Virus record (IMG/VR): IMGVR_UViG_3300008448_000032
Location: 1-64,000 of that record
Length of the DNA stretch: 64,000 nt
Reading direction: 5' to 3' (one strand)
Source: a virus
This document shows, one piece after another, positions 2,307 to 37,749 of this stretch; positions within the stretch are counted from its first letter, which is position 1; every line of letters starts with the position of its first letter. The notes beneath the pieces are model-generated. The model worked only from the letters and a program-made list of their open reading frames with translations, had not been told where the DNA came from and did not search any database. The translations under genes and the position numbers were made by a program.

Positions 2307-3380
2307 ATGAAAAATATACCTTCTTTCAAACAATTTAATGAAAACTATTCACTTTTAGAGTCTGCTGATTCTAGATTAGAATCTATGTATTATGATTTAA
2401 AGAACGAAGCATCTATAGAAGAATCTTTGGTTACTATAAACGAAGGTCTTTTTGGCAACATGCTAAAAAATTGGGCTTCTAAAACTTTCTTGGGACCTTT
2501 AGGACTTTCTAAAGTTAAATACATAGATAAAGCTAGAGATATCCATTTAGGTCTTGAATTGCAATTATTGGCAAAAAAAGACGATTATGAGACTTCGTTA
2601 GAAAAATATAACGAAGAGATGGATAAACTTTCTTCCGATGTAGAAGGGGATAAACCTAGGATAGAAGCTATAAAAAAGAAAATAGAGGAGGAAAAAAGAA
2701 CTTTTGATGCATACGCAAAATCTCAAAGACTTAAAATCGAAAAAGCTAAAGAAGTTATAGAAGCAGCAATCGATGGAAATGAGAGAAGGAGAGTTTACGC
2801 AGACGCTGGAATGGCTGAGGATAAAATAATTTTAGCAGAGAAAGAATACGATTATGCTAAAAAAAGATCTTCTTCTGAGGATCTAGATGAATTGAGCGAT
2901 AGAATTAAAACATTAAGATCTAATCTAGAAGAAAAAATAGAAAAATTCAAAAAAAGTGAAGAGAAGAAAGACAAGAAAGAAGAGGAGATAACTAAGGATC
3001 AAAAAGAAATTATGGGAGATCCTATTGCAAAAAGAATAATAGACAAGGTTAAAAAAATTAGACCTAAAGGAATTATTGATATTACTGAAGATGTTAAGAA
3101 AGATATAGCTACTTTAGAAGCAGACGAAGAAAGACTGAAAGAAGAGATTAAAAGAAAATCTTCTACCGCTGGAAAAATACAGAAAGAAAAATACAGAAAA
3201 AGACTTAGGATTATCCAAGCTGAGATAGAAGGAAGAAAAAAACAATTAGAAGTTTTAAGAGGACTAGGGAAAGATTCCATAACTATAACTAAAAATCTAA
3301 AAAATCCTAAAAAATCACAGGAGGTTTTAGATAAAATAGCAGAGATAGACATGGAAGCTGAATCTGAAAAATCTAAATAA
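2307..3380 (+). CDS. Coiled-coil protein with capsid-targeting-like leader
   Basis: MKNIPSFKQFNENYSLLE leader; K/E-rich helical body. Confidence 0.6.
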   Translation: MKNIPSFKQFNENYSLLESADSRLESMYYDLKNEASIEESLVTINEGLFGNMLKNWASKTFLGPLGLSKVKYIDKARDIHLGLELQLLAKKDDYETSLEKYNEEMDKLSSDVEGDKPRIEAIKKKIEEEKRTFDAYAKSQRLKIEKAKEVIEAAIDGNERRRVYADAGMAEDKIILAEKEYDYAKKRSSSEDLDELSDRIKTLRSNLEEKIEKFKKSEEKKDKKEEEITKDQKEIMGDPIAKRIIDKVKKIRPKGIIDITEDVKKDIATLEADEERLKEEIKRKSSTAGKIQKEKYRKRLRIIQAEIEGRKKQLEVLRGLGKDSITITKNLKNPKKSQEVLDKIAEIDMEAESEKSK

Positions 3381-3397
3381 AATTAAAATATAAAGAT

Positions 3398-4288
3398 ATG
3401 AACGTATCCTTTGAAGAATGGGAATCTCTTTACGAAGGAAATTTTTTCGATAAAGTAAAAAATTTATTAAGTAAATCTTTGGGAGGAGCTGTCAGCAAAT
3501 TAGATGAATTAGCTCAATCATACAGGAAAAGCGAAGCTGATTATATAAAAGACTGGGATAACGGTAGTATAGAAAAGGATAAACTGGAAATAGAATTAGC
3601 CCAATCTAAAAGTGATCCTGCTGAGATTAAAAAGATAGAGAGAATGATCAAAAGGAATAGAGATGTTCTAGCTACTGCTCAGAGAGCAAGAACGGATAGA
3701 GCTGAAGCTATAGACAAAAAAGCTAGATCTATTTGTAAAAATAATGAAAGATTGGGTACTTATTGGGATGTAGAAATTTCGAGAATTAATGCCGAAATTT
3801 CAGAAAGACTCCATAGAAAAGCAAAAGATCTTAATGACGAATCCGAAGCTTCTAAATTGTACGATATTTACCAAAGAGCTTTAATGACCTCAAAAAATAA
3901 AGAGGAAGAATTTAAATCTAAATTCGGATCTTCTTTTGCTGAAGAGGGTATTAGATCTAAAGATTTGGGGGGAGATGCAGGAGAAGGAACCGATGCTTCT
4001 CAAGAATTATATTTAAATCTACCTATTAAGGAATTTACTTCCAAGGTAAAATCTCTTTCCCCTAAAGAAAGAAGATCTTTAGTTTCCAGACTTGTAAAAG
4101 AAAGAAACGAAAGATACGTTGCCATGGATATAGAACAGGATTCTTTAATCAAACAATTAGATTCTAAGAAATTAAAAGGTAAAGATCTAGAAGAAGAAAA
4201 ATCTAAAATAAAATCTGCTAAAGAAAAATACCTAGAAGAAATAAGGGATCTTAGAGGAAAAATAACCATTGCTAGAAGAAATGATTAG
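3398..4288 (+). CDS. Coiled-coil protein, probable paralog of 2307..3380
   Basis: MNVSFEEWESLYEGNFFDKVKNLLSKSLGG resembles INEGLFGNMLKNWASKTFLG of the upstream ORF. Confidence 0.55.
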   Translation: MNVSFEEWESLYEGNFFDKVKNLLSKSLGGAVSKLDELAQSYRKSEADYIKDWDNGSIEKDKLEIELAQSKSDPAEIKKIERMIKRNRDVLATAQRARTDRAEAIDKKARSICKNNERLGTYWDVEISRINAEISERLHRKAKDLNDESEASKLYDIYQRALMTSKNKEEEFKSKFGSSFAEEGIRSKDLGGDAGEGTDASQELYLNLPIKEFTSKVKSLSPKERRSLVSRLVKERNERYVAMDIEQDSLIKQLDSKKLKGKDLEEEKSKIKSAKEKYLEEIRDLRGKITIARRND

Positions 4289-4574
4289 ATTTAATACTTT
4301 TAAGAAATTAGGAATCTTTAATTTTTTGAACGAGGCAGAAAGTACGGATACCCTAATTAGAAAATCCGAAGAGAATCTTTCTTTAAAATTTGATGCTCTT
4401 AAAGAAGCTAAAGCAATGAAAAAACCGGGAGATATTAAATCTAAGATAGATAGCATAAATAAACAATCCCAGATATACATAGAAATCTCTAACTCTCTTA
4501 AAACATTAGGAGCTTTATACCAGAAAAAGTCTACCGAAAAAAAAGAAGTACAAGGAACAGGGGATATATACTAA
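4281..4574 (+). CDS. Small helical protein with leader ending FLNE
   Basis: MIRFNTFKKLGIFNFLNEAES; ATG 4281 overlaps the end of the previous gene. Confidence 0.5.
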   Translation: MIRFNTFKKLGIFNFLNEAESTDTLIRKSEENLSLKFDALKEAKAMKKPGDIKSKIDSINKQSQIYIEISNSLKTLGALYQKKSTEKKEVQGTGDIY

Positions 4575-4583
4575 AACGAAAAA

Positions 4584-7028
4584 ATGAAGAATATTTCCAT
4601 ATACAATCCAATTGCAAAAATGATATTAAAAGAACACAGTTCTTTAATACTAGAAAGCGAAAAAGTAGATGCTTTAATTTCTAAAATATCTGATAATGCA
4701 TTGAATTGTTTTAAAATCGTTAATTTCGATCTTGCTCCTAAAAGAGAAAGAAACCCCAATATAATGAGGGACAAACTTTCTAGTATATCGGGTTCTAAGA
4801 GTGTAAAAACTTTAACTTCTAAATTGATAGACTACTCCGAAAATTCCGAATTAGCTAATAGCAAATACCACGAGGTAAAATCCGAATATATTTCTGCTTT
4901 AAAAAAATTCTGTAGAGCTTTGGTTAGAACTTCAGAACTATCTAAAGATAAAGAATCGGAAATATTAAAAAGGTTTAAAACCCCTCCTGCAAATCTTCAA
5001 AATGCTTTAGATTCTATATCGGAAAGAGCAAAAGACGAAAAAAAGAAATTAGAAGAATCTATTTATTTTATTAATGAATCGCACGTTGGATTTAATACTA
5101 GATTAGATTTTATAAAAAAATCACTGGTAAATCTTCTTTCTTCTGCAGAAGGTAAAAATCAAAAAAATGGATACGGAAGAGACTGGAAAAGAATATTCTT
5201 GGAGCTCGATGAAAAAAGAAGAGTTCTGGATAAGCCAGAAATGGGGTATTCTGAAAGAGGAAGAAAATCTTTAGAGGATTTGGAAAAACAAATTCATAAA
5301 TTTTCAGATGAATTCAACAATGCTTTAGTTCAATCTGTAAATAAAGCTATACAGGGAATTGAAGAGGATGACGAAGTTATAAAAATTTATTCCGATGTAA
5401 CCGAATTGGCTCATCGTGCTCTAGATGATCTCACAAGGGCCAAGGCTCAACAATCGATGGTTTTTAAAGAAATCCTAGATGATTTTGATAATAAAGAAGC
5501 TACGGTCTCTAAAACGATATTTCCGTTAAGCTTAGGGGACAAAGATTCGGATAAAAAAATATGTGGGACCAGACTTATTTCTAATATACAAAAAGCTCTT
5601 TCTTCTATACCTTCCGCTTCGGATGTTATTTCTAACGAAGGAGGGGTAAATGGGGTTTATAATATAGCTTTAAAATCTGTTATTTCTACTATCCAGAAAT
5701 TGGAAGGAAATAAGAACACAAACGGAGAGATAGATAAAACTCTTTTAGATTCTATTCTTGCCTCAGATTGGGTTTCTGCTGATGATAAAAAAAGAATCCA
5801 AAAATCCATAGAAAATATAATGGATAGAGTTGACGAATCCAAAAAAATATTAAGTTTTGATGACGTGGTTTCTCCTTTGTACGAGAATAGGATAGTCATT
5901 AAAAATTCGGAATTTGCAAAAGAACTTTCGGTACAATATGCAAACGCTTTAGAGGATGCTCCTAAAGACTATAAAAATTCAGATTACAAAAAAGGAGAAG
6001 TCTATCAACTTTCTAAATCTTTAAGAAAAGCTTATAAGATAAGTATAGAAGATGAGGATTTTATAAGAGAAGATGGGGATCTAAAATCTTCATATTCACC
6101 AGAATTTATATCTGCTTGGAATAAAGCTTTATCCGAAATAGAAGACCCTGAAGAATATTCATATTTCTATTTTAATGAGGGATTATATTCGATATCTTTA
6201 GAGACAACATCTTTGAAAACCCCTTCGAACTGGCCAAAGTGGAGAAAAGATAGAAAAATAGAAGAAGCGGATAATGAGGATCTTGTTGATTTTATAAGTA
6301 ATTATCTTAAAGGATGGAAAACTTTAGGTATGATAAAACCTGAGTACAGATACACTAAGATTAGAAAATTAATATCAGAAAATCTAGAAAAAGAAGATCT
6401 AAAATATTCCGAAGCTTATACTAAAATGAAAAGCTCTATCCGATATAAAGATGTACCTTATATAGATTATCAAGATTTAAAAAGCGACATAAAAGAAGCT
6501 ATAGAGAATATAATCCATAAAAATAGAAGAGAAATGGATTTAGATAGAGAAGAATTCGTAGGACTAAACAATTTTTTAGTTTCTTTAGCAAATTCTATTA
6601 CTTTCGACGGGGAAAAATTCATAAGCTGTTTAAAATGGATACACGATAATGTTCTGGGAGAAAAGACCTGTAAAAAGGTAGCTTCTGAGGCATTCACATC
6701 TACGGAACAAACGGATAAAGAAACTGGAAATCTCTTAACTTTCGACGGTAATTCTTTAATGGTTCTCCCTTATAAGAATCTACTCCGAAACATGGACATA
6801 AAGAAAGCAGATAAGAAATGCCCAGATTCAATTTCAGGGTTTAGACCTATTATAAATCTTAGTTCTTCAGATTCTCCAATATTAAAAATATTATCTAGAA
6901 ATTTAGGTTATATAACTTCTACGATATTTCCTTCTATTGAAAATCATTTAAAAAGGATGAATTCCGATTCTTTTGGAAAAATTCCTAACGTTTCCCCATT
7001 TAAATGTTTCGATGCGGAAGAAAAATAA
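4584..7028 (+). CDS. 814-aa protein with a degenerate peptidoglycan-binding (PG_binding_1-like) domain
   Basis: PLSLGD...LISNIQKAL...VNGVYNIALKSVISTIQKLEG...NGEIDKTL pattern; GATATATA at 4563; leader ending LILE. Confidence 0.5.
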   Translation: MKNISIYNPIAKMILKEHSSLILESEKVDALISKISDNALNCFKIVNFDLAPKRERNPNIMRDKLSSISGSKSVKTLTSKLIDYSENSELANSKYHEVKSEYISALKKFCRALVRTSELSKDKESEILKRFKTPPANLQNALDSISERAKDEKKKLEESIYFINESHVGFNTRLDFIKKSLVNLLSSAEGKNQKNGYGRDWKRIFLELDEKRRVLDKPEMGYSERGRKSLEDLEKQIHKFSDEFNNALVQSVNKAIQGIEEDDEVIKIYSDVTELAHRALDDLTRAKAQQSMVFKEILDDFDNKEATVSKTIFPLSLGDKDSDKKICGTRLISNIQKALSSIPSASDVISNEGGVNGVYNIALKSVISTIQKLEGNKNTNGEIDKTLLDSILASDWVSADDKKRIQKSIENIMDRVDESKKILSFDDVVSPLYENRIVIKNSEFAKELSVQYANALEDAPKDYKNSDYKKGEVYQLSKSLRKAYKISIEDEDFIREDGDLKSSYSPEFISAWNKALSEIEDPEEYSYFYFNEGLYSISLETTSLKTPSNWPKWRKDRKIEEADNEDLVDFISNYLKGWKTLGMIKPEYRYTKIRKLISENLEKEDLKYSEAYTKMKSSIRYKDVPYIDYQDLKSDIKEAIENIIHKNRREMDLDREEFVGLNNFLVSLANSITFDGEKFISCLKWIHDNVLGEKTCKKVASEAFTSTEQTDKETGNLLTFDGNSLMVLPYKNLLRNMDIKKADKKCPDSISGFRPIINLSSSDSPILKILSRNLGYITSTIFPSIENHLKRMNSDSFGKIPNVSPFKCFDAEEK

Positions 7029-7033
7029 TCCCC

Positions 7034-7621
7034 ATGAAACATCTAATACTTTTCGAAAATTATAGAAACGAACACGATTTAGAAACTCTAAGGGATTATC
7101 TTATCAAATTTAATTTACCTGTAGAAAAATGGGGTAAAGGGTATGCAAAAACTTTAAATCATCTTTTTTTAGAAATAGAATCAGGAGAATGCAGGCTGGT
7201 AGAAGAAAATAAAATCCTAATAAGAGAAATAGAATTTGTTATGTGCCAGATCTACTATTCAGAAGGGGGAAATATTCTTAAGCTGATAGAGGAAAAACAG
7301 GTATTTATAGACGGAAGAACTAGAGTAAGAGAAAAAGAATCTTCAGTTTCCGAAAAAATGAAAATAGGAGAAGATCCAGAAGAATCCCTAATTAGAGGAA
7401 TAGAAGAGGAATTAGGAATTTTATTAGAAAAAAATCAGATAATTCAATTGGACGGGGTTGACGAGGATGAAGAATCCCAATCTTTTCCCGGACTTATGAC
7501 CAGATACAAAGGACATAGTTTCGAATGTTTTTTAAACGAGGACCAATTTAATCCTAAAGGGTATGTCGAAACCCAAAAGGACAAAAAGACTTATTTTATC
7601 TGGAAAGAATCCACTATTTAA
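7034..7621 (+). CDS. Nudix-fold protein with leader MKHLILFENY
   Basis: EKMKIGEDPEESLIRGIEEELGI is a Nudix-box variant; start reassigned to ATG 7034. Confidence 0.65.
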   Translation: MKHLILFENYRNEHDLETLRDYLIKFNLPVEKWGKGYAKTLNHLFLEIESGECRLVEENKILIREIEFVMCQIYYSEGGNILKLIEEKQVFIDGRTRVREKESSVSEKMKIGEDPEESLIRGIEEELGILLEKNQIIQLDGVDEDEESQSFPGLMTRYKGHSFECFLNEDQFNPKGYVETQKDKKTYFIWKESTI

Positions 7622-7684: not shown

Positions 7685-7688
7685 ATTC

Positions 7689-9681: not shown

Positions 9682-10314
9682 ATGGAAAATGGTAGAATTA
9701 TAAAAGATTTTGATCGATTTAAATTTTTAAACGAAGACCAAACTCTTCTTGGACTTTTAACCGGAGAACTCGGGAGTCAGGTAGAAAAAGCAGGTAAAGA
9801 AGCTATAACAAATTATGCAATGGAGTATTTTGGAATCCCAGTGGATTCAGAAAATCCTGCTACCATTTGGATATTAGAATTATTTAAAAAAATAATGGCA
9901 AATATGTCTAACCGAGATTTGGAAGAAATATTAGAAGGTAGACAATCTATTGATGATGGAGAATTCTGGGTTCCTAAAGTAGTTGATGCTTTTTTAGAAA
10001 CTATACAGGATAGAGGGCCTCAGCCAGCACTTATAGTTGGAGATTGGCTTGGACTAGACACTAATAAATTTTTAGGAAGGCTTCTTATGAATGCTATAAG
10101 AAATAACCTATACAATAGATCTAAGCTTCAAAGAAATCTTTTGTCTTTATGGAATTTAGCTTCGGACGCAGAATTTATTCCTAGAGAAGAAGCTGGGGAT
10201 ATCTATAAAGAAGCAATGGGGGAATTATCTGACGAACAAAAAAAGAAAGTTAAAGATTCTGGATTATGGAACAGCGCTATTAAGCAAGCAGATACTTTAA
10301 GAAGCACTAGATAA
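9682..10314 (+). CDS. Hypothetical protein with leader IIKDFDRFKFLNE
   Basis: ORF; GATATATA at 9653. Confidence 0.55.
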   Translation: MENGRIIKDFDRFKFLNEDQTLLGLLTGELGSQVEKAGKEAITNYAMEYFGIPVDSENPATIWILELFKKIMANMSNRDLEEILEGRQSIDDGEFWVPKVVDAFLETIQDRGPQPALIVGDWLGLDTNKFLGRLLMNAIRNNLYNRSKLQRNLLSLWNLASDAEFIPREEAGDIYKEAMGELSDEQKKKVKDSGLWNSAIKQADTLRSTR

Positions 10315-10324: not shown

Positions 10325-11230
10325 ATGAACATTAGAGACGTTAAAAAAAGAAATATAATCAATTTTGATGATTTCTTAGATAAGGTTCACGACGAAAACT
10401 ATAAACCGATCAAAAACCAATCTTCGGAGATAAATCCTCTTAGCGGTTTATCTAATATAAAAAGACAAAAAGCTTTTGATTATGCAGGATATGCAGACAG
10501 CGTATTTGCTGGACAATCTAAGATAGATGTTCCAGGAGGAAGAATCGAAATAGGAAAAGGTAAAATAGATGCTATTTCTACAGGATCCGCTTTTTCTTCT
10601 AGCGGGGTGACTTTTGAGTCCCAAACTAGAATAAAAAGGCTAGGAGATATGATCGTAGAAGCTCAACAGATCTCAACGGTAGGTACAATTACACGGGATG
10701 AAAAAACAAAAGGACTTGGAGATCCTAAAAATTTAACCGATGTTGATCTTTTTCCTACTTTAACTAAAAAATTAAACCAGACCCGGAACTATGACCCTTT
10801 TCCTCAGATTTTTAAAGATTTCTTTAAGAGAAATTATTTTTGGTCTTCCGGAAGATTTCATTACAAGGATCCAAAAGGGGAAGGCGGAGATTGGGGCCCT
10901 TATTCTCCCAAAGGTTCTATCTGCTGGACGATGGGATATTCCTGGCCTGCTCATCCAGAAAGAGGAACTCGAAGAGTTCATTTAGAGTTTGAGCCTTCTA
11001 TGAAAAAAGTTTGGTATGTTGGGGAAGAATGGGAAGATTCCACCCCCGGATCCATTTACGGGGCAGCTAGTTGGTCTATGGATATTACGATGGATCAAGC
11101 GGGATTAAATAAAATTATCGAAGGTTTAAAAACTAGTCCTGTCTCTAGATCTTGGGGACGTTACATTATCCAATATGGAGTAGAAGTTTTCCAAAGCAAA
11201 TGGGATAATTCTATATCTTCTGGTTTTTAA
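10325..11230 (+). CDS. Hypothetical protein with leader-like IINFDDF and internal IKRLGDMIVE
   Basis: 301-aa ORF with A-rich upstream region. Confidence 0.5.
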   Translation: MNIRDVKKRNIINFDDFLDKVHDENYKPIKNQSSEINPLSGLSNIKRQKAFDYAGYADSVFAGQSKIDVPGGRIEIGKGKIDAISTGSAFSSSGVTFESQTRIKRLGDMIVEAQQISTVGTITRDEKTKGLGDPKNLTDVDLFPTLTKKLNQTRNYDPFPQIFKDFFKRNYFWSSGRFHYKDPKGEGGDWGPYSPKGSICWTMGYSWPAHPERGTRRVHLEFEPSMKKVWYVGEEWEDSTPGSIYGAASWSMDITMDQAGLNKIIEGLKTSPVSRSWGRYIIQYGVEVFQSKWDNSISSGF

Positions 11231-11833: not shown

Positions 11834-12616
11834 ATGAAAATTAAAAGATTTAATGATTTTATGTCAGAATCCATTTTTGATAAAGATTTTTTTAGCAGAA
11901 TAGGATCTCTAGTAAAAGATACTGGAACTCCTGGATATTCTTCTTCTAGTACTCAGCATAGCCAAAGTTCTTCAGAACCTTCTATCTCTTCTTCCGTTGA
12001 CAGAACCCCAAGAAGTATGGGACAAAAATCTTCTTTAACCCAAGGAGCTTTAACCGCAAATACAAATAAGAATGCTCCTATGGTGGTTGTTTTCGGGGGA
12101 ACCGACGTCGGAGGAAAAGCTAGCGGAAAATACATGTACGATTATTTTACTCCGGATGTTCTATCTAAGTATAATGTTTTTGTAGCAAATTCGTCGAGGA
12201 TAAACGGCGAAAAAGCTTGGAAAGAAATACAAGAAAAATCGGTAGAACTTGGGCTTAATCCTTCTAAGAAAATACTATATTTGTTTTCGGGGGGATATTT
12301 TCCTGCAATGTCAATAGGAGGAGCCGGATTAGACATGGATAAGAGAATAGACTATCTTAATAATACTTTTGATAAAATATTTTTAGTTGATATATGGATA
12401 GGAAAAAGTGGATCTACTTTCTATAAAAAATTAGCAGAAAAATGTGGAAATAAATTAGAATATTATTCTTATGGCGGAAATAATTCGGGAGGTGGATCTA
12501 ATAATATTCCAGTAAGAAATTTAATAGTCTCTAAAGCTTCTAAATCTCATTTGACTGCTCCTGATCATATGAGGACAAACGATGAAGCCATTAAATCATT
12601 AAAATCCCAATTCTAG
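11834..12616 (+). CDS. Leader-bearing alpha/beta-hydrolase-like protein
   Basis: MKIKRFNDFMSE leader (start 11834, after GATATATA at 11809); Ser-rich linker; VVVFGG, LFSGG nucleophile elbow, FLVD, C-terminal DH. Confidence 0.55.
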   Translation: MKIKRFNDFMSESIFDKDFFSRIGSLVKDTGTPGYSSSSTQHSQSSSEPSISSSVDRTPRSMGQKSSLTQGALTANTNKNAPMVVVFGGTDVGGKASGKYMYDYFTPDVLSKYNVFVANSSRINGEKAWKEIQEKSVELGLNPSKKILYLFSGGYFPAMSIGGAGLDMDKRIDYLNNTFDKIFLVDIWIGKSGSTFYKKLAEKCGNKLEYYSYGGNNSGGGSNNIPVRNLIVSKASKSHLTAPDHMRTNDEAIKSLKSQF

Positions 12617-12618
12617 TT

Positions 12619-13290
12619 TTGAAGATAATAAATTTCCAAGATTATTTTTCGATTAATGAATCTAAGCATTCCTATTTTAGAAGAAAAGCTTTGGATTATT
12701 CTTTCGCGGATCTAGAACCTTTTATAGACAAAGAAACAATGTTAGAACATTACAATGTTCACTATAAGAAATATACTGATCTTTTAAATGAATGCATAGA
12801 CGAAGAATCTATACCGGTTCAAATGGGACCAAATATGGAGGGAATAATATCTATACTTAGAAATGTTGGTAGATACACAGATAAATTAAGAAATAATGCC
12901 GGAGGTTTCTATAATCATTTTTTATATTTTGATCAATTTACCCCAGAATTAAATTCTCCCGGTGGAGAAATAAAAAAATCTATTCTTACCTCTTTTGTTT
13001 CTCTATCTAATCTAAAGAAAGAAATGTTAGAAGCTGGGCTTTCCCAGTTCGGATCGGGATGGGTTTGGCTGATATCGGATTCTTCCGGAAACCTTTACAT
13101 AAAGACAACCCCAAATCAGGACAATCCCTTAATGGAAGAATCTTTTAATGATAAGATTCTATTGGGTATAGATGTTTGGGAACATGCTTACTACCTTAAA
13201 CACAAAGCAGATAGAAAATCTTACCTTAAAGAGGTTTTTAAGGTTATAGATTGGGACAAAGTAAATTCTAGATTTTTATCTTTTAATTAG
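12619..13290 (+). CDS. sod: Fe/Mn superoxide dismutase with capsid-targeting-like leader
   Basis: LEPFID..TMLEHYNVH, NNAGGFYNH, FGSGWVWL, TPNQDNP, DVWEHAYY; extra N-terminal MKIINFQDYFSINE. Confidence 0.93.
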   Translation: MKIINFQDYFSINESKHSYFRRKALDYSFADLEPFIDKETMLEHYNVHYKKYTDLLNECIDEESIPVQMGPNMEGIISILRNVGRYTDKLRNNAGGFYNHFLYFDQFTPELNSPGGEIKKSILTSFVSLSNLKKEMLEAGLSQFGSGWVWLISDSSGNLYIKTTPNQDNPLMEESFNDKILLGIDVWEHAYYLKHKADRKSYLKEVFKVIDWDKVNSRFLSFN

Positions 13291-13644: not shown

Positions 13645-14049
13645 TTATAGGAATCTACTAAACACGTTTCCTTTGGAAATGTACCCAGAAAGATCTTCTA
13701 GAGGAACTTCTTTATCCTCGTTAGTCATTTTATAATCAGTATCCCATGTAGTAACATTAAAAGTTAAAGGGGAAAGAGATTTATCTTTCTCTGTAATTAT
13801 TCTAACAAATCCTCCGTTAGTAAGAGGAATATGACACATGAAAAGACCAGCATCTCCTATTTCTGCAGCATTTCCGGCTTTTTCTGACTCGTTAGCTATA
13901 TCAACAACCCCTTGTATATCGGTATCTTCAAAATCGATAGGACCTTTGTATCTATCGAAAGGCATCCATTGAAATATTCCTTTTTCTAAACTAACAGAAG
14001 ACTCATTCAAGCTCTGAGAAAAACTTTCAAATAATTTTATGTGTTTCAT
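13645..14049 (-). CDS. Hypothetical protein with leader MKHIKLFESFSQSLNE
   Basis: ORF; minus-strand GATATATA at 14074-14081. Confidence 0.6.
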   Translation of the reverse strand: MKHIKLFESFSQSLNESSVSLEKGIFQWMPFDRYKGPIDFEDTDIQGVVDIANESEKAGNAAEIGDAGLFMCHIPLTNGGFVRIITEKDKSLSPLTFNVTTWDTDYKMTNEDKEVPLEDLSGYISKGNVFSRFL

Positions 14050-24179: not shown

Positions 24180-25664
24180 ATGAAAACAACAAGACCAGTA
24201 TTTGAAAGTTTTTATTCTTTCGTAGATTTTCTTAATGAATCTATTGATGGAGAATATTACGAAGATTATCTTTTAGAGGATGAAGGAGATCCGGGAGATG
24301 AATTAGATTCTGACACAGAAACCGGAAAGCTTTCCGAATTTTCAAATAGTCTAAGAGGGATGGAAAAAATTAATCCAAAAATTGTAGAAAAACTTTCAGC
24401 TTCATTTAAAACATTGGTTACCGATGCAGGAGCAAAAGCTTTGGAATCTTATGCCCAAAAAATTGCATCTTTTGCTGCATCTACGAAATCAGGAGTTAAA
24501 TTGATAAGAAACCAATTGACTGGAGGTGGCGCCGGAGCATATTATAAGTGGTTAATTAACGGGACTTGTAAAGTTAAAGGTCAGCCAGCAATGAATGAAG
24601 AAGGAGTTATTAGAGATCTAGCTTTAACTGTAGATGACGATGGATCGTCTTTCTACCCTCTTTCTGATGTTCTTATTGGAATATTACAGAGAAATTTGAA
24701 AGCTTTATCCGATGTATTGGCAACAAAAGATGAAAAAACAATCCAAAAAGCTGCTAATGGAGGTAAAAAAGGAGGAAATGGAATAATTGAAAAAAAACAA
24801 TTGTTAACGATAGATCCAGCATCAATAAAAACCAGAATATTAGAAGTACTCCCGTACGAGAAAGAATTCCATACGGCGGCAAAAAAAGATATGAGAGACG
24901 GGACTCAAGTGGGACCAAAAGACAGCTATGTAATTTCTGCTTCCCGACTAGACGGAAAAGATAAAGTTAAATTTGGGAGATATGAATATGCCTTTGTCCT
25001 TCCTATTTGGGCTTTAGTCCCATCGTCTATAAAAGCATCTACCAACAAGGTGGATGAAAAAACATATACGACTGTTCTTCCCCCTGCTCAGGGAACTGAA
25101 ATTAAAATTGTAGATAAGCCTTTTAATTCTTCTAAAGAGCAATTCTTTTCAGCAGGATCCGTAACTTTATTACAATCAGGGGTAAATGATATGAAAGCTA
25201 TGCTTTCTCAATTTAATTCGATAGAAAAAATAAAAGTTGTAGGTGGAGCATCCCAAGCTCCTACTAAATATGTATCTTCTAATGAAGAAACAAAAAAAGA
25301 AATTACCCAAGAAAATACAAAAGCAGCAAAAGTGTTAATAGGAAATGGATATCTTGCTTATGACCGAATGCTAGCAGGGGTAAGCGCTTTTGAAAAAATG
25401 AAGGAAGATGGAATCCAGCAACTTAAAAATTGTACTATAGAAAAATCTACGGCAGATGAAGTTCTTAAAAATGTACAAACGATAGATGCAGAAAGTGATC
25501 CTAAAATGCAACAAATTACTTTTTATGTTAGTGGTATGGTCAAAGGAGTAGATCAAATAGCAGATAATAAACCAACTATAATTAAAAGGACTGTTGACAT
25601 AACATCTCAACAGGTGAAAATTGTTCAATTTCAATATGTTTTAGCATTTGATATTAAGAAATAA
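24180..25664 (+). CDS. Leader-bearing protein with OmpA-like C-terminal domain
   Basis: VFESFYSFVDFLNE; FFSAGSVTL...IKVVGGASQ...GNGYLAYDRM resembles OmpA C-terminal motifs; GATATATA at 24141. Confidence 0.5.
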   Translation: MKTTRPVFESFYSFVDFLNESIDGEYYEDYLLEDEGDPGDELDSDTETGKLSEFSNSLRGMEKINPKIVEKLSASFKTLVTDAGAKALESYAQKIASFAASTKSGVKLIRNQLTGGGAGAYYKWLINGTCKVKGQPAMNEEGVIRDLALTVDDDGSSFYPLSDVLIGILQRNLKALSDVLATKDEKTIQKAANGGKKGGNGIIEKKQLLTIDPASIKTRILEVLPYEKEFHTAAKKDMRDGTQVGPKDSYVISASRLDGKDKVKFGRYEYAFVLPIWALVPSSIKASTNKVDEKTYTTVLPPAQGTEIKIVDKPFNSSKEQFFSAGSVTLLQSGVNDMKAMLSQFNSIEKIKVVGGASQAPTKYVSSNEETKKEITQENTKAAKVLIGNGYLAYDRMLAGVSAFEKMKEDGIQQLKNCTIEKSTADEVLKNVQTIDAESDPKMQQITFYVSGMVKGVDQIADNKPTIIKRTVDITSQQVKIVQFQYVLAFDIKK

Positions 25665-28087: not shown

Positions 28088-28735
28088 ATGATCTATTCTT
28101 TTTCCGTATTCGAATCCATGAAAAATGGATCTAATCTATTGGATAAAGCAAGTCCAGATTTTGTACCCCATGAAACTTTTCATGAATTCTCTTGGGTAAA
28201 GCCAGAAGAATCTGAATGGTACTATTCTATAAAGAGAAATTCGCCTTTAGAGATTCCGAGAAATAGAAAATTCTATGACACGTTAGATTCCCCGTTAAGA
28301 GAAGGAGTGGAAATACTTCATAAAAAAGGAATCCCTACAACTCCTTCTTGCTCAGGTCATTTTAATCCGGACTCTTTCTATAATAAAATATACAAATCTC
28401 TTTGTTCCGAAGAAGAAGAAATAAGAGGGAAAGGGATAAATCTAAAAGATCCGGAAACGAACGAAAGGTATGTCTATAAAGATCCCAATTATAGAATACC
28501 CTGGGAGGAAAAATCATTTCTGGAAATATCTAGAGAGCATGGAAAAAAAGGAATAATAGGAATTTTAGATCCTATGGGTGAAATACAAAGGAGTCTAATG
28601 GAATCTTCTGGATCTGATTGTCAGATAACAAGAAACGGAAATTTAACTTTTTTCATAACTTCTCCTAAAGATAAAAAATCATTGGATTCCTCTTGGGAGA
28701 ACTTTAACGATTCCATCAAAAATTTTTTTAAATAG
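28088..28735 (+). CDS. Hypothetical protein with TxxSCxGH motif
   Basis: LDSPLREGVEILHKKGIPTTPSCSGH; start ATG 28088 after GATATATA at 28072. Confidence 0.55.
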   Translation: MIYSFSVFESMKNGSNLLDKASPDFVPHETFHEFSWVKPEESEWYYSIKRNSPLEIPRNRKFYDTLDSPLREGVEILHKKGIPTTPSCSGHFNPDSFYNKIYKSLCSEEEEIRGKGINLKDPETNERYVYKDPNYRIPWEEKSFLEISREHGKKGIIGILDPMGEIQRSLMESSGSDCQITRNGNLTFFITSPKDKKSLDSSWENFNDSIKNFFK

Positions 28736-29379: not shown

Positions 29380-30786
29380 ATGTCTAGAAGAGTTAAAAAT
29401 TATTGGAATTTTTTAAATGAAGGAAATGCCCTTACTAAAAGTAAGGCAGCAAAAACTATAACTGCTGTTATAGACCCCGATACAAGGAGAAACATTAAAA
29501 GAAAATCCCAAGGAGAAATAGAGCAAAGTAAATCCAAAGACGGACAGACTTGGGCTGCAGATACTAGATACACATATCTTCCAGAGGAAGAAGGATATGT
29601 GGGATGGTCCAAATTTCACTTCGGTAAAGTAGTTTTGAGGGAAATCGAAGAAGAAGGATCAACAGAAAATGTGTATGAAGTTTTAACCGGACTAAATAAA
29701 GGGGTAAAAGGACCTTACGAATGGCAATCCGGAAATATCGGAACCCCAATTTACAATCCTCCGTATGGAAAAAAATGGGCAGATCTCCTAGGTCCTGACG
29801 AGGAATTCTTCAACAATTATGAATGGAATTCTAATCCTCCGATGAAAATTACATCTGTTCCCGGAATCGAAATAGCTAAAGTTGGGAATAAAGGGGAATG
29901 CCAATTAATCTACACCGATAAATTTCAGCTTTACGGAAAAGTAAAAATATATCATGATTTTAATTCAGATTCTAATTTTTCTTATGAGGTTTCGGATGGA
30001 AATAATAAAGGAAAAAAAGGAAAAGGATTTTCTTTTATAAAAAGGGAAGAACTAGAAACAAAAGAAATTACTCCTTCTACCGAATTCCCTATTTTAAATA
30101 ATTTTTCAAAGGACGGAGAAATAATAAAAGCTTATGTAAAATTCCCTTATCCAACTCACAATGGATCAGGGTTTGGTGCCCAGTATGCAGGAAGTCCTTC
30201 GGGTAAACCTTATTCAATACCTTCTTCGTCAATAAACCCGGATCATTATATATGGTTAGATACTTCTGAATTTGAATCTATAAATTCTTCTAGCCTAGAT
30301 GTTTTCAAATCTCTTTACGGAGATTTGAAATATAAAGATAAATTCGGAGAAAAAACTCTCGGAAGTCAATATCAAGAAAAATCTAAATATTATTGGGCAG
30401 ACATAGGATCAGAGATAAAAGGGAATAAATTATCAGGATCTTATCTTTTCAATTATTTAGGATCTGGAAGCTACATCTATCTATATAGTGTTAATTCAAA
30501 AAACGAGAGTAATGCAAGATTAAAATGGGACGATGAAGTAGGATGTTTTGGTAATAATTTTTTCACTGGACTTTTTATTACGGGGTTTGATCTTAAAAAT
30601 CCAGGGGATAAATATACTAGAGAATATCTAAAAGGAGAATGGTTTTGGGATTACAAGAACAATTATGTGTGTTTACTATATGCTTATAATTCAAAAGGAG
30701 AAAAGAAAAGTGTAATATATAATTTAGATTCTCCTTCAGAACCGGTTCCTTATGATAAATGGGGGGGAGCAGGAGGAGATTGGTAA
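29380..30786 (+). CDS. Hypothetical protein with leader RVKNYWNFLNE
   Basis: 468-aa ORF. Confidence 0.55.
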   Translation: MSRRVKNYWNFLNEGNALTKSKAAKTITAVIDPDTRRNIKRKSQGEIEQSKSKDGQTWAADTRYTYLPEEEGYVGWSKFHFGKVVLREIEEEGSTENVYEVLTGLNKGVKGPYEWQSGNIGTPIYNPPYGKKWADLLGPDEEFFNNYEWNSNPPMKITSVPGIEIAKVGNKGECQLIYTDKFQLYGKVKIYHDFNSDSNFSYEVSDGNNKGKKGKGFSFIKREELETKEITPSTEFPILNNFSKDGEIIKAYVKFPYPTHNGSGFGAQYAGSPSGKPYSIPSSSINPDHYIWLDTSEFESINSSSLDVFKSLYGDLKYKDKFGEKTLGSQYQEKSKYYWADIGSEIKGNKLSGSYLFNYLGSGSYIYLYSVNSKNESNARLKWDDEVGCFGNNFFTGLFITGFDLKNPGDKYTREYLKGEWFWDYKNNYVCLLYAYNSKGEKKSVIYNLDSPSEPVPYDKWGGAGGDW

Positions 30787-30799: not shown

Positions 30800-31696
30800 A
30801 TGAAAAAAATAAAACTATTCGAAAACTATTCTTTAGAGAATTATGAAAGAGAGATAGAAGAATCTATTTATGAAAAATGGTCTTCTAGAAATGGGGATTC
30901 TTTATATCTATTAGAATCCATGGGTTCTGAAGAGGAAGATAGGCTGGATTGGCTTGATGATGAGGAATTAACACCGGGAGAAATGAGAGCTTTGGAGAGA
31001 GATCTTCAAGTTATTTCTAAAGAGCAACTAGCTGCTTTGTATCTAAAAGCTTTAGGACAATATGAATTCGGGGATCCAGAAAGAATGAAAGGAAGAAGAT
31101 CTAAATCAGAGGTTGTTCAAGAAGACGTATATGTAACTGGAATCCCAGGAATAGAAGAATTTTGCTCTGAAGACTGGAAAAGCGGAAATCTATTTATTGG
31201 TCCTAGTGCTCTTTCTGATGCGATAGGACTGAGATCTTTGGGTACTGTAACAAGAACAGTTAATAAATTTAGACTTCTTTTAGACGGAGAATCAGAGGGA
31301 AGATATGACGAGGTGGTTTACCCTAAAGTTATAAATGCGTTTGATTTTTTCAAAGGAAAATCTCCAGAAGTTATACAGGGAATAGCTGCAGGGGGAATAC
31401 AAAATCCAGAAACTTCTAAAGAGCACAGATCTGTTCTTAAAGGATCTGGTATTTCTAAAGCTGATTCTCTAATAATAGGAAAATTGGTTCATTCTCTTTT
31501 TAAAGATTATATGTCTAATTCTTTTTTCAGGAAGAATGTTTGTAAAGCTCAAAGCTCTGCTATATCTTCTATTTCCAAATCTAAAAGAATATCTCCTGAA
31601 GAGCTGGAAACATCATATAAAAATTATCTAATATCTCAAAAAATGTTAGATAAATTCAATTGGTGCGGACTTTATTCTAAATATGGGATCTACTAA
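30800..31696 (+). CDS. Hypothetical protein with leader MKKIKLFENY
   Basis: Start reassigned to ATG 30800. Confidence 0.55.
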   Translation: MKKIKLFENYSLENYEREIEESIYEKWSSRNGDSLYLLESMGSEEEDRLDWLDDEELTPGEMRALERDLQVISKEQLAALYLKALGQYEFGDPERMKGRRSKSEVVQEDVYVTGIPGIEEFCSEDWKSGNLFIGPSALSDAIGLRSLGTVTRTVNKFRLLLDGESEGRYDEVVYPKVINAFDFFKGKSPEVIQGIAAGGIQNPETSKEHRSVLKGSGISKADSLIIGKLVHSLFKDYMSNSFFRKNVCKAQSSAISSISKSKRISPEELETSYKNYLISQKMLDKFNWCGLYSKYGIY

Positions 31697-32616: not shown

Positions 32617-33408
32617 ATGAAAACTATTAAAAATTTTAACGAATTTGTATCCGAATCTATTTTAGATTCACCTATTTTCCAAAAAATTGGATCACTTGTT
32701 AAATCCACCCTGAATAGATCGGTAAATACTACTGAATATGAAAATGAGGTGGAAAAAGGAGATGCTGCAGAACCCGGAGGAGTTATGGGAGAATCCCCTA
32801 TAGGAAGAGGAACTTCATTAGAATCCGATATGAAATTTACCAAAGAAGAGATGGAAACCTTTGGAGAAAAAATAGGAATAACCGATAAAGGAGACAAGGC
32901 AAAATTGGAACAGCCCTCCACCGGTCCTATAGGAAATATATCAAATTCTGCGTATGCTAACCTAAATGTTTCTACAAGAGGAATCCCGGGTACGGATGGT
33001 GGAAATCTTGGATGTGCTGCTGCGACTTCTATAATGTTCTATCGGGCAACTGGATATTCCTTAGCCGGGGGAACGACGGTTTGTATAGGAACTCTTACCA
33101 TATATGACGAATTGGATAAGAAAAGTAAAGAACCTTTATCTCCTTGGAAAAAGGTAACAGATTGGAAAAATGATTACATGCCTGGTGATATTATCGTTAC
33201 TAGAAGAAGATCCAGACCTGGACATATCGGGGTAGTGGTTAATGATGGAAATATAATTTCAAATTCTTCATCTGGATTTAAAGGAGATAAAATGGGACAA
33301 ATAGAAGAAAATTACACTATAAAATCCTGGGATAGCGTAGCTAGAAGAAATCCTACGGAAACCGCAATATTTAGATACCAAGGTCCTTACAAGAACAGCT
33401 GGTCTTAA
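32617..33408 (+). CDS. Leader-bearing NlpC/P60-CHAP-like Cys/His amidase
   Basis: MKTIKNFNEFVSE; GNLGCAAATS...PGDIIV...GHIGVV...IISNSS. Confidence 0.65.
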   Translation: MKTIKNFNEFVSESILDSPIFQKIGSLVKSTLNRSVNTTEYENEVEKGDAAEPGGVMGESPIGRGTSLESDMKFTKEEMETFGEKIGITDKGDKAKLEQPSTGPIGNISNSAYANLNVSTRGIPGTDGGNLGCAAATSIMFYRATGYSLAGGTTVCIGTLTIYDELDKKSKEPLSPWKKVTDWKNDYMPGDIIVTRRRSRPGHIGVVVNDGNIISNSSSGFKGDKMGQIEENYTIKSWDSVARRNPTETAIFRYQGPYKNSWS

Positions 33409-35258: not shown

Positions 35259-36323
35259 GTGAACAATCTTAATAGATTCTGCGAATGGGCGATCAATGAA
35301 GCCTCTTATTTTACTAAATGGGCTTCTACCCCATCGAACATAACAGCAGCTCAAAAAAGAGACATTGAATCCAAAGTAGAAGCTTCTTCTTCTGTTGATA
35401 TGGAAATTCTTAAAAATTTCAATCCTTCTTATAGCTCTAGATATTGGGAGGCTTTAAAAATAAGATTGGGAGAAAATAAAATAAAATTTAAATATGGAAA
35501 CACCTCAGCAATTCCTAAGCAGTGGATATATTGGGGAGAAAAGGTAATATATTCCGACAAAAGACCACTCCTTTCTAGAAATAACTCAACTAAAGAGGAG
35601 GTTTTAGCTTATTTTCCTATCCCATTCAACGGAGTAGTTCTAGATAAATTTTGGGTTGTTGCAGTATGGAAAAACGCTTCGGGAGTAAATATGTTAAGGG
35701 AAATGTCTTTAAAGACATACCTTACTAAAAGTACTAGGGATATAATAGATATTTATTTTAAGGGATATTCTTCCCCGGTGACCAATAAATCAAATCCCAA
35801 AGATTATTGGACCCTTATCGCTATAATGGCCTGTGAAAATTTTCCAGAACAATCTCAGGGAATGGCAGATGTTGCTCAATCTATATACAATAGATATTAT
35901 GTTAATGGAAAGCCTTACGGTAAAACCATATCTGAAATAATACTTGCTAAAGGACAATACGAACCCGTTACAAAAGGATTAAAGAAAGGAGCAGACTGGA
36001 AAAATGTAAATAGCAGATCTAAAGCTATAAGTGTTTATATGAAGACTAAAGGAAGTACATCAGATGTAGCTAATAAAGCAATAAATAATGCTATAGCTGC
36101 ACAATCCGGTAAATCTTATGTCTCCCAGGCAAAATCCCACGTGAAGACAAGAACAGAATTTTTGGCTTCTTCTCCTAAGTCTTCTTCCGCGGTTTCTCCG
36201 GTAGAAAGATCTGATCCAAAAAAACACAATTCTTTTTTCTGGAACTATGCCGGAAAAAATCAATATTATGCTAAAAAAGATTTCTCAGCAAAGCCTATCC
36301 CATCGGAAGTTAAGATCGCTTAA
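35259..36323 (+). CDS. Leader-bearing SleB/CwlJ (Hydrolase_2)-like cell-wall hydrolase
   Basis: MNNLNRFCEWAINE; LIAIMACE...GMADVAQSIYNR...TISEIILAKGQYEP; GATATATA at 35235. Confidence 0.7.
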   Translation: MNNLNRFCEWAINEASYFTKWASTPSNITAAQKRDIESKVEASSSVDMEILKNFNPSYSSRYWEALKIRLGENKIKFKYGNTSAIPKQWIYWGEKVIYSDKRPLLSRNNSTKEEVLAYFPIPFNGVVLDKFWVVAVWKNASGVNMLREMSLKTYLTKSTRDIIDIYFKGYSSPVTNKSNPKDYWTLIAIMACENFPEQSQGMADVAQSIYNRYYVNGKPYGKTISEIILAKGQYEPVTKGLKKGADWKNVNSRSKAISVYMKTKGSTSDVANKAINNAIAAQSGKSYVSQAKSHVKTRTEFLASSPKSSSAVSPVERSDPKKHNSFFWNYAGKNQYYAKKDFSAKPIPSEVKIA

Positions 36324-36343
36324 GATATATAAATAAAAAGAGG

Positions 36344-36778
36344 ATGTCAAGAATATACGATTACGGAGCTTTTTCAAATAATAAATCTAAATTTTCGGAT
36401 TCGGGTAATAAATTTGGGTACGAGATGTCTTTTGTCGATATAGATATATCGGGAAAGCCTAAAGAATTTAGAGATATAATTGATGTTAAAGTTTTTATTG
36501 AATATTCCACTAACGTCGTTTCCAATAAAAGAGGTCTAGAAAGAGTTGATTTTTCCGTAGATTGTATAGAGCTTATAATGGATATTGAAAATTCCGTCGG
36601 GAAGAACGAGGAGATAGATTTTGATCTTATCCCAGGAAAAACTATAGATTACGGCCAGGTTAAGTATACCATAAATGAATTTCCTATACCTTCTTATCCT
36701 CAAAGAATAGAAATAAATATGAACGGGTTTACAGATCCTACGAGGTTTGATGTAATGGTTTATTTTGGAAATAACTAG
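36344..36778 (+). CDS. Hypothetical late protein
   Basis: ORF; GATATATA at 36324. Confidence 0.55.
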   Translation: MSRIYDYGAFSNNKSKFSDSGNKFGYEMSFVDIDISGKPKEFRDIIDVKVFIEYSTNVVSNKRGLERVDFSVDCIELIMDIENSVGKNEEIDFDLIPGKTIDYGQVKYTINEFPIPSYPQRIEINMNGFTDPTRFDVMVYFGNN

Positions 36779-36780
36779 GA

Positions 36781-37749
36781 ATGAGAGAAATTCTAGAATA
36801 CGAAAGTTTTAATCCTCTTCACGAATCTAAAAAATATGAGGGCCTAAGATCTGTTAAAAAAACTTGGGGTGGAGAATACATTCTAGACGTTGACGATTAT
36901 CAAAAGACAAACAGCAAACCTTTAAAGGGATCTATATTAATAGGAAAGGATAGCGGAAAAGCCGTTGCTCTTACATATTTAAATCCGGATGGAAGCGAAT
37001 CTAAATACCTTTGGGTTCCTTATTTCGGAGCTTATATGAATAGAAATACCGCAGGAGGGATAAGCTCTATTAAAATAACACCTTATAAAAATTGGTTATC
37101 GCAGTCAGAAAATGAAAAAAAGCTTGAAGATTTTTTAGATGGATTTCAAGAATCTATAGAAAAAGAAAAAACTGAAAGCGAGAAAACCGTAGGACTTCAG
37201 GCACAAAAAGATTTAGACCTTATATTAGACATGTACGGAATAAATTCTCCGATAGAAAAATTTGAAAAAGGGGATAGAGAAAATGAATGGAGAGCTATTC
37301 TAGAAAATGGATTTGTCGTCATAATAAAAAAGAGATCTTCTGAGGATCTTGTAGGAGAATTTAGAATTTACCCCAAGGAAAAAGAAGAATTTCCATATAT
37401 AGAGATAAGCACGGAAAAAAATGAGAAAGGGTTTAAATTTAAAAGACCCGGAGAATATATGATTCGAAGAAGAATAGATATGACCGACCTCAAAAAAGAT
37501 CCCGTAGCTTTATACCTGTTTAAGAATATAACAGGTCTCCAAGAATATGAGGACGAAAAATCATTATTGAACTATTTTGAATCTCTAGTAAAATCTCAGG
37601 ATACTTCTTACCAAATGTCGGATGATTCCAGATCTTATAAGAGTGGACAGTCCGAAAGAGAAGAAATAAATCTGGTTTCCAAATTACTAGAGGATTTCTT
37701 AACTTCTAAAAAAATAGAAGAAATCTACACAAAGAACAAAAAAAGATAG
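36781..37749 (+). CDS. Hypothetical protein with leader MREILEYESFNPLHE
   Basis: 322-aa ORF. Confidence 0.55.
   Translation: MREILEYESFNPLHESKKYEGLRSVKKTWGGEYILDVDDYQKTNSKPLKGSILIGKDSGKAVALTYLNPDGSESKYLWVPYFGAYMNRNTAGGISSIKITPYKNWLSQSENEKKLEDFLDGFQESIEKEKTESEKTVGLQAQKDLDLILDMYGINSPIEKFEKGDRENEWRAILENGFVVIIKKRSSEDLVGEFRIYPKEKEEFPYIEISTEKNEKGFKFKRPGEYMIRRRIDMTDLKKDPVALYLFKNITGLQEYEDEKSLLNYFESLVKSQDTSYQMSDDSRSYKSGQSEREEINLVSKLLEDFLTSKKIEEIYTKNKKR

Follow-up and report, generated by a model that had tools for sequence, protein, structure and literature searches.

The first 64,000 nucleotides of the IMG/VR virus record IMGVR_UViG_3300008448_000032 (the window: 64 kb at the start of a phage contig of 86.9 kb and ~33% GC) contain a series of genes whose largely unrelated products begin with one kind of short leader. 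The contig begins partway through a T4 gp23-family major capsid gene; there follow an HNH homing endonuclease gene, a 35-kb block of mostly orphan genes (2307-37749) and, from ~38 kb onward, baseplate and fibre genes. Only 10 of the 43 proteins of the block have a Pfam family at E<=0.001. Twenty block genes, with one weak case more (10325), encode the leader. An initial annotation of this DNA had likened these N-termini to the tags that direct internal proteins into the head of T4, and had proposed a much larger enzymatic payload delivered with the phage DNA. The reading preferred here, and held to be probable, is that the leaders are T4-type capsid-targeting propeptides cut off by a prohead protease.

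The source is an uncultured T4-type jumbo phage of freshwater Bacteroidota. Among named phages it stands closest, by capsid protein, to an uncultured 462-kb phage (45% identity), to the Lak megaphages (43-44%), to Tenacibaculum phage PTm1 (37%) and to Flavobacterium phage MaF61 (31%). IMG/VR holds at least 231 relatives, with genome sizes of 250-434 kb, and DNA of the phage is present in lake and freshwater metagenomes, in 20 runs of 13 studies, with no RNA run among those listed. Searches of the phage collection with window positions 1-12000 (megablast) and with the 814-aa protein encoded at 4584..7028 (tblastn) gave no match. The main comparison genome is a complete relative, G003, of 289,651 bp and 386 open reading frames (ORFs).

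A leader shared by proteins of the block

The leader has the consensus M-K-x-h-x-x-[FYW]-x-x-[FYW] (h, hydrophobic), followed after 0-8 residues by [LIVM]-[N/S/x]-E, for a length of 8-20 residues. All 17 of the N-termini quoted in the initial annotation were found where it had placed them. Its figure of about 25 such proteins was too high: the count comes to 20 plus the weak one at 10325 (9.0 bits), with 4281, 4584 and 28088 newly added. At 7034, 11834 and 30800 the leader starts at an internal ATG of the longest ORF.

The closing motif is concentrated at the N-termini of the block. Within the first 30 residues of its 43 gene products, [LIVMF][NS]E stands at 18 of 1204 positions, vs 41 of 9965 in the rest (3.6-fold, p=4.5e-6); the N-termini of the contig's 36 other genes show no enrichment (2/1008 vs 41/15783). 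When each leader was held out in turn (leave-one-out profiles, LOO), 15 of the 20 placed within the first four against 293 internal windows that start with Met; 12 outscored all 59 other N-termini of the contig. The full model, run over 809 six-frame start candidates of the 87-kb contig, found none above 7.1 bits outside the block. Its sole extra match is internal, MDYESFSNSLNE/GS at 18438 in a DUF5824 gene (here and below, a slash marks the predicted cut); this stretch is either an internal site or the true start of the gene. Among ORFs of 26-49 codons the top score was 9.0 bits, and none was convincing.

In 16 of 20 leaders the closing Glu is followed by S, A or G (background 0.21, p=2.5e-8). 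This position, P1', was not used in picking the leaders; the Glu itself, P1, is fixed by construction. At P3 stand L (12), I (5), V (2) or M (1), and a hydrophobic-x-Glu closure of this kind is the cleavage motif of gp21; the S, A or G that follows is what a cleavage site would be expected to show. A shared DNA cassette was considered as the source of the likeness and rejected: codon choice varies between leaders, and selection therefore acts on the peptide.

The tag is also widespread in relatives. When the leader profile was run on the whole proteome of G003, 51, 36 and 25 ORFs scored at least 8, 10 and 12 bits, with at most 3, 1 and 0.8 decoys at these thresholds. The 51 proteins make up 41 body families, and only seven have a homologue on the window's contig; conversely, 11 of the 21 leader proteins of the window have none in G003. 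Elsewhere the model finds 6 matches in G002, 19 in G004 and 6 in G005, and 7 places in the published LR756500.

Protease, scaffold and capsid protein

The contig is cut inside its capsid gene; the phage's own protease gene is out of view, and the genes upstream were read in relatives. There, the gp21-like protease that the initial annotation had suggested seeking is present: each of the four relatives with a completeness of 90% or more encodes a protease-scaffold fusion next to the capsid gene. In L003/G002 and G003 it is a protein of 673-676 aa, its gene directly upstream of the capsid gene. The protease part, the first ~170 residues (Pfam matches span 33-166), matches Peptidase_S77, the T4 gp21 family (32.3 bits, cut-off 27), phrog_207 'head maturation protease' (2.4e-39), Peptidase_S80 (1.5e-7) and, weakly, the T4 gp21 structure 5jbl (E=0.005). 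The PTm1 record names the equivalent gene 'prohead core scaffolding protein and protease', and T4-type portal and terminase genes are present in relatives as well. Behind the protease part the fusion continues as a scaffold-like tail rich in repeats; in G003 (L083:3277-5307) this holds 12 tandem units of 14 residues, YSxYLAENLD. Each YSxYLAENLDxxIx repeat holds an L-A-E element; the scaffold may be cut into repeat-sized pieces.

Sites like the close of the leader recur in the head proteins themselves. The N-terminal region of the relatives' capsid proteins reads MKLINE..PIIE/SKAG..HYHSLNE/SAGAY, and SLNE/SAGAY is found in 42 of 42 distinct N-termini (a 43rd row, a wrongly picked ORF, was left out); that of PTm1, not aligned to the others, contains ...GGIINE/SYGSQG. 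When the 386 ORFs of G003 are ranked by density of h-x-E-[SAG], the protease-scaffold comes first (13 vs 3.3 expected, p=5e-5), an 876-aa head-module protein second and the capsid protein eighth. The protease-scaffold holds 8 of the 95 strict [LIVM][NS]E[SAGN] sites of this genome, and across 27 orthologues the scaffold sites CLNE/S, GLNE/SG, LIE/S, NINE/A and WE/SLxE/G are invariant or nearly so. Strict sites also crowd towards protein starts. Of the 95, 26 finish no later than residue 30 (11.9% expected, p=3e-5), and they peak at residues 11-20, in a test for which ORF starts were chosen without guidance from the leader. Three independent lines, namely the capsid protein, the scaffold and the S, A or G after the Glu, thus point to the closing motif of the leader as a probable protease site.

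Likeness to T4 and to other loading systems

According to PMC5694885, the capsid-targeting sequences (CTS) of T4 are propeptides of 10-20 residues that load proteins onto the scaffolding core; the T-even internal proteins (IPs) are described in PMC3012670 as a diverse set with only the CTS in common. The leader MKTYQEFIAE, which the initial annotation had attributed to IPII and IPIII, is confirmed from NC_000866; that of IPI is MKTFKEF. A profile made from the window's 20 leaders only was run on the N-termini of 141 annotated T4 proteins (NC_000866, 50-150 kb), and IPIII, IPI and IPII rank 2, 4 and 5 of 141 (chance 2.2e-5).

The T4 ranking is topped by gp2 (gene 2, L098), a DNA-end protector that travels in the head and begins MAIFQIINE/S.

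As in the CTS of IPI, IPII and IPIII, a short N-terminal tag stands here on unrelated proteins, reads M-K-x-aromatic-x-x-F and closes in hydrophobic-x-Glu; as in T4, it goes with a gp21-family protease (here seen in relatives) and a gp23-family capsid protein. T4 has three IPs, whereas 20 tagged genes lie in 35 kb here and 36-51 in the complete relative. Leaders here often exceed those of T4 in length, have a second aromatic residue and favour L-N-E/S at the end; the bodies include enzymes (superoxide dismutase, or SOD, and cell-wall hydrolases; in relatives adenylate kinase, ClpP and GDPD), unlike the small basic proteins of T4; the protease is fused to a scaffold; and the host belongs to the Bacteroidota.

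Giant phages offer a second comparison. The heads of phiKZ, 201phi2-1 and SPN3US are large and hold some 50 kinds of protein, of which many are packaged and ejected (PMC7411985, PMC10052503); giant-phage head propeptides, mostly longer than 100 residues and with the cut motif A/S/G-x-E, are thought to act like the T4 CTS (PMC5694885). The present group resembles that type in its gp21-related protease (the Peptidase_S80 match of the relative); unlike it, the leaders here have 8-20 residues and L, I, V or M at P3 in 20 of 20, which places them outside the type. In encapsulins, too, a short portable peptide sends unrelated enzymes inside an HK97-fold shell; it is usually C-terminal and is not removed by a protease, and the shell has neither DNA nor an injection step. 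The leaders share with those cargo-loading peptides the short portable address; they differ in being N-terminal, in their proposed removal by a protease and in serving a head that holds DNA. None of the papers listed in a literature search (15 of 92 matches) brought huge phages or megaphages together with capsid targeting, and the searches made gave no account of it for this phage group; the word 'leader' does not occur in PMC9723584.

Leader genes and the bodies behind the leaders

The features of the window are collected in the table.

Table. Leader genes and associated features of the window, with LOO scores and ranks among 293 internal windows where available; GATATATA is an upstream box
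Feature	Coordinates	Strand	Observations
3' end of gp23-family major capsid gene	2..436	+	Pfam Gp23 5.1e-23; contig begins inside gene
GATATATA box, candidate phage-specific (late) promoter element	2282..2289	+	26 sites in window vs 7.6 expected
Leader gene 1, MKNIPSFKQFNE..LLE/S..TINE/G	2307..3380	+	LOO 14.0 bits, rank 1 of 293
Leader gene, MNVSFEEWESLYE/G	3398..4288	+	LOO 6.2 bits, rank 4 of 293; G003 orthologue begins MTLLKFKDWDNLNE/A
Leader gene, MIRFNTFKKLGIFNFLNE/A	4281..4574	+	LOO 10.1 bits, rank 2 of 293; absent from initial annotation
814-aa protein, weak leader MKNISIYNPIAKMILKE/H..LILE/S	4584..7028	+	LOO 3.9 bits, rank 24 of 293; G003 orthologue 1.6 bits
Leader gene MKHLILFE/NY, weak Nudix body	7034..7621	+	LOO 9.0 bits, rank 4 of 293; NUDIX E=0.0063, below cut-off
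Leader gene, MENGRIIKDFDRFKFLNE/D	9682..10314	+	LOO 8.1 bits, rank 2 of 293; GATATATA at 9653
Doubtful leader MNIRDVKKRNIINFDDFLDKVHDE	10325..11230	+	9.0 bits, full model; outside the 20
Leader gene, MKIKRFNDFMSE/S	11834..12616	+	LOO 13.9 bits, rank 0 of 293; GATATATA at 11809
Fe/Mn superoxide dismutase, 14-residue leader MKIINFQDYFSINE/SKH	12619..13290	+	TTG start; Sod_Fe_C 7.6e-34, Sod_Fe_N 3.2e-13
Leader gene MKHIKLFE/SFSQSLNE/SS	13645..14049	-	Best LOO score, 25.8 bits; GATATATA at 14074-14081, minus
Leader gene MVNLKYFKIFEKEIYLKE/S, HEMRH body	15463..16659	+	LOO 4.8 bits, rank 13 of 293; HExxH at residue 191; SprT-like E=0.006, weak
Leader gene MKNLQGFNGFIEIINE/A, Cys-rich, 140 aa	17445..17867	-	LOO 11.8 bits, rank 2 of 293
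DUF5824 protein, internal leader-like MDYESFSNSLNE/GS at 18438	18204..18746	+	14.1 bits; DUF5824 3.7e-14
Short leader MKIYNSINE/FLA, Pro-rich body	22135..22419	+	LOO 5.5 bits, rank 5 of 293; G003 orthologue begins MAIITKMNE/FLA
Leader gene MIKSFEQYLNE/ASLGGNPG	22426..24117	+	LOO 14.5 bits; leader kept in G003 orthologue
Leader gene MKTTRPVFE/SFYSFVDFLNE/S	24180..25664	+	LOO 8.5 bits, rank 3 of 293; OmpA an Atlas lead (0.81) only
Weak short leader MIYSFSVFE/S	28088..28735	+	LOO 2.2 bits, rank 44 of 293; GATATATA at 28072; absent from initial annotation
Leader gene, MSRRVKNYWNFLNE/G	29380..30786	+	LOO 8.0 bits, rank 3 of 293
Leader gene MKKIKLFE/NY	30800..31696	+	LOO 11.3 bits, rank 2 of 293
Leader gene MKTIKNFNEFVSE/S, candidate cell-wall peptidase body	32617..33408	+	LOO 17.9 bits; phrog_1015 'tail protein with lysin activity' 6.7e-5
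Leader gene MNNLNRFCEWAINE/A, SleB-type cell-wall hydrolase domain	35259..36323	+	GTG start; Hydrolase_2 1.8e-6, 28.9 bits, cut-off 27; LOO 12.6 bits
Leader gene, MREILEYESFNPLHE/S	36781..37749	+	LOO 5.4 bits, rank 8 of 293; orthologues keep F7, F10 and invariant E15

In several proteins the leader can be told apart from the fold behind it. Residues 18-219 of the SOD align to residues 4-201 of PDB 6gsc; as the alignment to solved SODs starts at residue 18, the N-terminal surplus is therefore leader. The AlphaFold model of the 36781 product (pLDDT 73) has residues 1-3 and 8-16 below pLDDT 50 and begins its fold near residue 20; it has no Foldseek match at E<=0.001, and a wide structure search gave only a helical hairpin (Z up to 7.5). 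A Pfam scan of 64 leader proteins (45 from G003, 19 from the window) found every domain to begin at residue 22 or later, and the adenylate kinase of G003 aligns to the known fold from residue 21-24, a surplus of ~20 residues. The leader is an N-terminal add-on to known folds.

The domains among the leader proteins of G003 are two CHAP, SLT, PG_binding_1, GDPD, adenylate kinase, ClpP (leader score only 9.4 bits), DUF5661 and paralogues with LRR, with a SleB-type Hydrolase_2 just under the cut-off; no virion RNA polymerase was seen among the 64 proteins scanned. The G003 homologue of 35259 has only the C-terminal domain in common with it, yet bears a leader of its own. Among the folds that the initial annotation had named for the window, SOD and SleB-type Hydrolase_2 stand; Nudix, SprT/zincin and NlpC/P60 (at 32617, E=0.0064) fall below the cut-off, with E ~0.006, the OmpA-like fold is an Atlas lead, and no leader protein proved to have an alpha/beta hydrolase body. 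For the body of 29380 there is no usable Atlas match.

The initial annotation's picture of unrelated bodies under a portable tag finds support; its enzymatic payload needs qualifying, since at least one body looks like scaffold or core. This is the product of 2307, whose body is rich in Lys and Glu (K+E fraction 0.31) and whose gene comes after the capsid gene in relatives; its composition makes a role in scaffold or core likelier than one as an enzyme. In 27 orthologues M1, K2, P5, S6, F7, N45 and E46 are invariant and E18 nearly so, and the leader is the best conserved part. A gp24-like vertex protein was considered for this gene and rejected: there is no Gp23 match, and the body is Lys/Glu-rich and coiled-coil-like by composition. 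The body of 22426 has the contig's top density of h-x-E-[SAG] sites, 8 vs 2.3 expected.

A low-complexity plus-strand ORF, 17431-17961, overlaps the minus-strand leader gene at 17445-17867; the minus-strand ORF looks real, and the plus-strand one is probably spurious.

On the contig, the kinase-like protein, AsnB, helicase, methyltransferase and baseplate proteins are without the leader, just as first described. The 147 leaderless ORFs of at least 180 aa in G003 (67 with a Pfam family) include TerL, the two T4-type portals, a sigma-70-like factor, ligase, clamp loader, PolB and ribonucleotide reductase (RNR), topoisomerase subunits, thymidylate synthase, gp32, helicases, DnaJ, RNase HII, RNA ligases and glycosyltransferases. 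The initial annotation had staked its proposal on the motif being rarer in replication proteins, and in G003 it is not equally common there; adenylate kinase is the sole odd case. A PG_binding_1+GH19 protein of G003 is leaderless, while five or six other cell-wall enzymes bear the leader; it looks like the true endolysin.

An upstream box

The sequence GATATATA lies 5-40 nucleotides before start codons, those of baseplate and fibre genes included; 0 of 100 shuffles reach the 26 sites of the window. Within 70 nucleotides upstream of leader genes it is found in 10 of 20 cases (plus strand 2282, 4563, 9653, 11809, 22106, 24141, 28072, 32598 and 35235; minus strand 14074-14081), vs 14 of the 59 other genes of the contig, so that the direct association is weak here (p=0.047). 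The initial annotation had put almost all leader genes in GATATATA-driven units; the box is real and 19 of the 20 do lie in such units, but at unit level it is not specific to leader genes on this contig.

Among the 8-mers strongly enriched upstream of genes in G003, none is more frequent than GATATATA (48 vs 2.4 expected; ATATATAC is slightly more enriched, 15 vs 0.7). It stands 33 nucleotides before the prohead-protease gene and within 70 nucleotides upstream of 18 of 36 leader genes, vs 30 of 350 others (odds ratio 10.7, p=4e-9). The box is a candidate phage-specific promoter element, which may act late. The late box of T4, TATAAATA, was tried as a candidate and rejected, with 21 sites in the window vs 16.6 expected.

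G003 also encodes the sigma-70-like factor, a Tad6-like Thoeris inhibitor domain and a protein with a type IX secretion C-terminal sorting domain (L082:221-829; L089:9953-10504; L090:9358-11283). The sigma-70-like factor may read the GATATATA box.

What the leaders may do

If the leaders are indeed capsid-targeting propeptides, the course of events would be as follows. The tagged proteins would be made late, alongside the head proteins; the amphipathic N-terminus of 8-20 residues (M-K-x-h-x-x-F-x-x-F) would dock each of them onto the scaffolding core in the assembling prohead; the gp21-family prohead protease, scaffold-fused in this group, would cut after the Glu of the closing [LIVM]-x-E; the mature protein would stay in the head; and the cargo would then probably be released into the host with the DNA. 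Core binding, cutting, retention in the virion and injection are steps that we infer, and delivery with the DNA is conjecture. The mechanism itself is the known one of T4; what stands out is its scale.

The tagged set is probably mixed. The Lys/Glu-rich proteins encoded after the capsid gene (2307, 3398) would be parts of the core or scaffold; the remaining leader proteins would be cargo: SOD, cell-wall hydrolases and a zincin-like protein, joined in relatives by CHAP, SLT, GDPD, adenylate kinase, ClpP and LRR proteins. That so many cell-wall hydrolases have leaders, while an endolysin-like protein has none, might fit delivery by the tail at entry. A more tentative extension, possible rather than probable, is that about one tenth of the group's genes encode capsid-loaded proteins under one portable tag, as an arsenal of injected effectors; the arsenal would be turning over fast, because 44 of the 51 tagged proteins of the relative are without a homologue on the window's contig.

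Several observations weigh against the capsid-targeting reading. The protease gene is absent from the window's contig, and its existence is deduced from relatives. The motif h-x-E is of low information, and 5 of the 20 leaders are weak in LOO profiles (4584, 15463, 22135, 28088, 36781). The T4 IPs score only 5.9-7.1 bits, with gp2 and TerL at ranks 1 and 3, and other substrates of T4 gp21 are unmatched (Alt 106, gp24 46, gp67 86 and gp68 123 of 141); the IPs match and these do not, and the likeness is therefore specific to the CTS of IP type. The cultured relative PTm1 gave 0 matches to the leader alignment, and none of the 23 coding sequences near its capsid gene has a leader; the G003 homologue of 7034 is likewise without one. 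Adenylate kinase (beside RNR genes) and ClpP would be odd cargo. A search for virion proteomes of relatives found none; for MA9V-1 an SDS-PAGE gel is published. The GATATATA-headed units of the contig also hold 51 of its 59 leaderless genes. Finally, 36-51 tagged proteins amount to 9-13% of the ORFs of the relative, and we know of no characterised phage with so many processed head proteins.

A second explanation, which we regard as unlikely, retains the protease and dispenses with delivery. That is, the leaders would be prohead-protease propeptides of proteins that never leave with the DNA: scaffold or core components that are chopped and expelled, or enzymes kept inactive until cut. The 2307 family suits this well, with 31% Lys+Glu and more invariant sites at E18 and E46, as do the several internal sites in 22426 and 4584 and a scaffold dense in sites (37 h-x-E in 676 aa vs a proteome rate of 2.2%). 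It accounts poorly for SOD, SleB, CHAP, SLT, GDPD, adenylate kinase and ClpP, which are intact folded domains with a single N-terminal site: full-length enzymes would be costly as mere scaffold, and cell-wall hydrolases make sense as entry factors.

The leader might instead be an address elsewhere, for example for non-classical export to the periplasm or envelope, or for a phage-made compartment. This we consider improbable. Many of the tagged bodies are of envelope type (SleB, NlpC/P60-like, CHAP, SLT, PG_binding_1, GDPD), and a G003 protein with an OmpA domain has a leader-like start; but those of adenylate kinase, ClpP, the Nudix-like protein and Fe/Mn SOD are usually cytoplasmic. Inspection of the 20 leaders by eye found no hydrophobic core of Sec, Tat or lipoprotein type, K, N, E, D, Q or S recurring every few residues. 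The closing motif is moreover common to the invariant capsid and scaffold sites, and the model picks out the capsid-targeted IPs of T4. Least probable of all is that the leader is a by-product of selection on mRNA 5' ends (A/T-rich codons for K, N, I, F, E and Y, Bacteroidota initiation) or of chance at low GC: the genome is ~33% GC and leader residues come mostly from A/T-rich codons, but the pattern is missing in the contig's 59 other genes, highly expressed structural genes included, codon content leaves the i/i+3 aromatic spacing and the S, A or G after the Glu unexplained, and the motif is enriched in the scaffold, far from start codons.

Should capsid targeting be the right account, the tag-addressed, head-packaged enzymes of these lake phages would form the largest such set on record, and the leader would serve as a one-line rule for predicting virion cargo from sequence in a phage group yet to be grown. 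The T4 capsid-targeting principle would then be old and general, common to phages of Escherichia and Bacteroidota with distantly alike capsid proteins. The cargo would point to the cell wall, oxidative stress and nucleotide pools as host defences or barriers met at entry. For engineering protein delivery by phage, a short portable tag that brings its own release site would be useful, as a simple handle for loading chosen proteins into such capsids.

Neighbouring genes

The HNH homing endonuclease gene between the capsid gene and 2307 (486/525-2267; phrog_3339 1e-101, DUF7487) is missing at that place in the close relative L001, and also in L003 and L004; it is therefore an insertion polymorphism. 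A second mobile-type gene, at 18792-19727, encodes a GIY-YIG SegE-like homing endonuclease (SegE_GIY-YIG 6.5e-6, phrog_314 1e-25) and has its own GATATATA box. The leaderless AsnB (asparagine synthase) gene at 8248-9654 lies within the leader block, and is kept there in L003, L004 and G003 too. A very basic 48-residue ORF without a Pfam family (16676-16822, minus strand) stands right behind a GATATATA box (16849-16856, minus strand); its product could be a DNA- or ribosome-binding peptide.

The two T4-type portal genes of G003 are tandem paralogues (L082:9170-10843 and 10866-12476; Portal_T4 8.9e-57 and 3.9e-69). Past the window, at 74418-79362 of the contig, three consecutive fibre-like proteins carry collagen-like G-x-y repeats near their N-termini.

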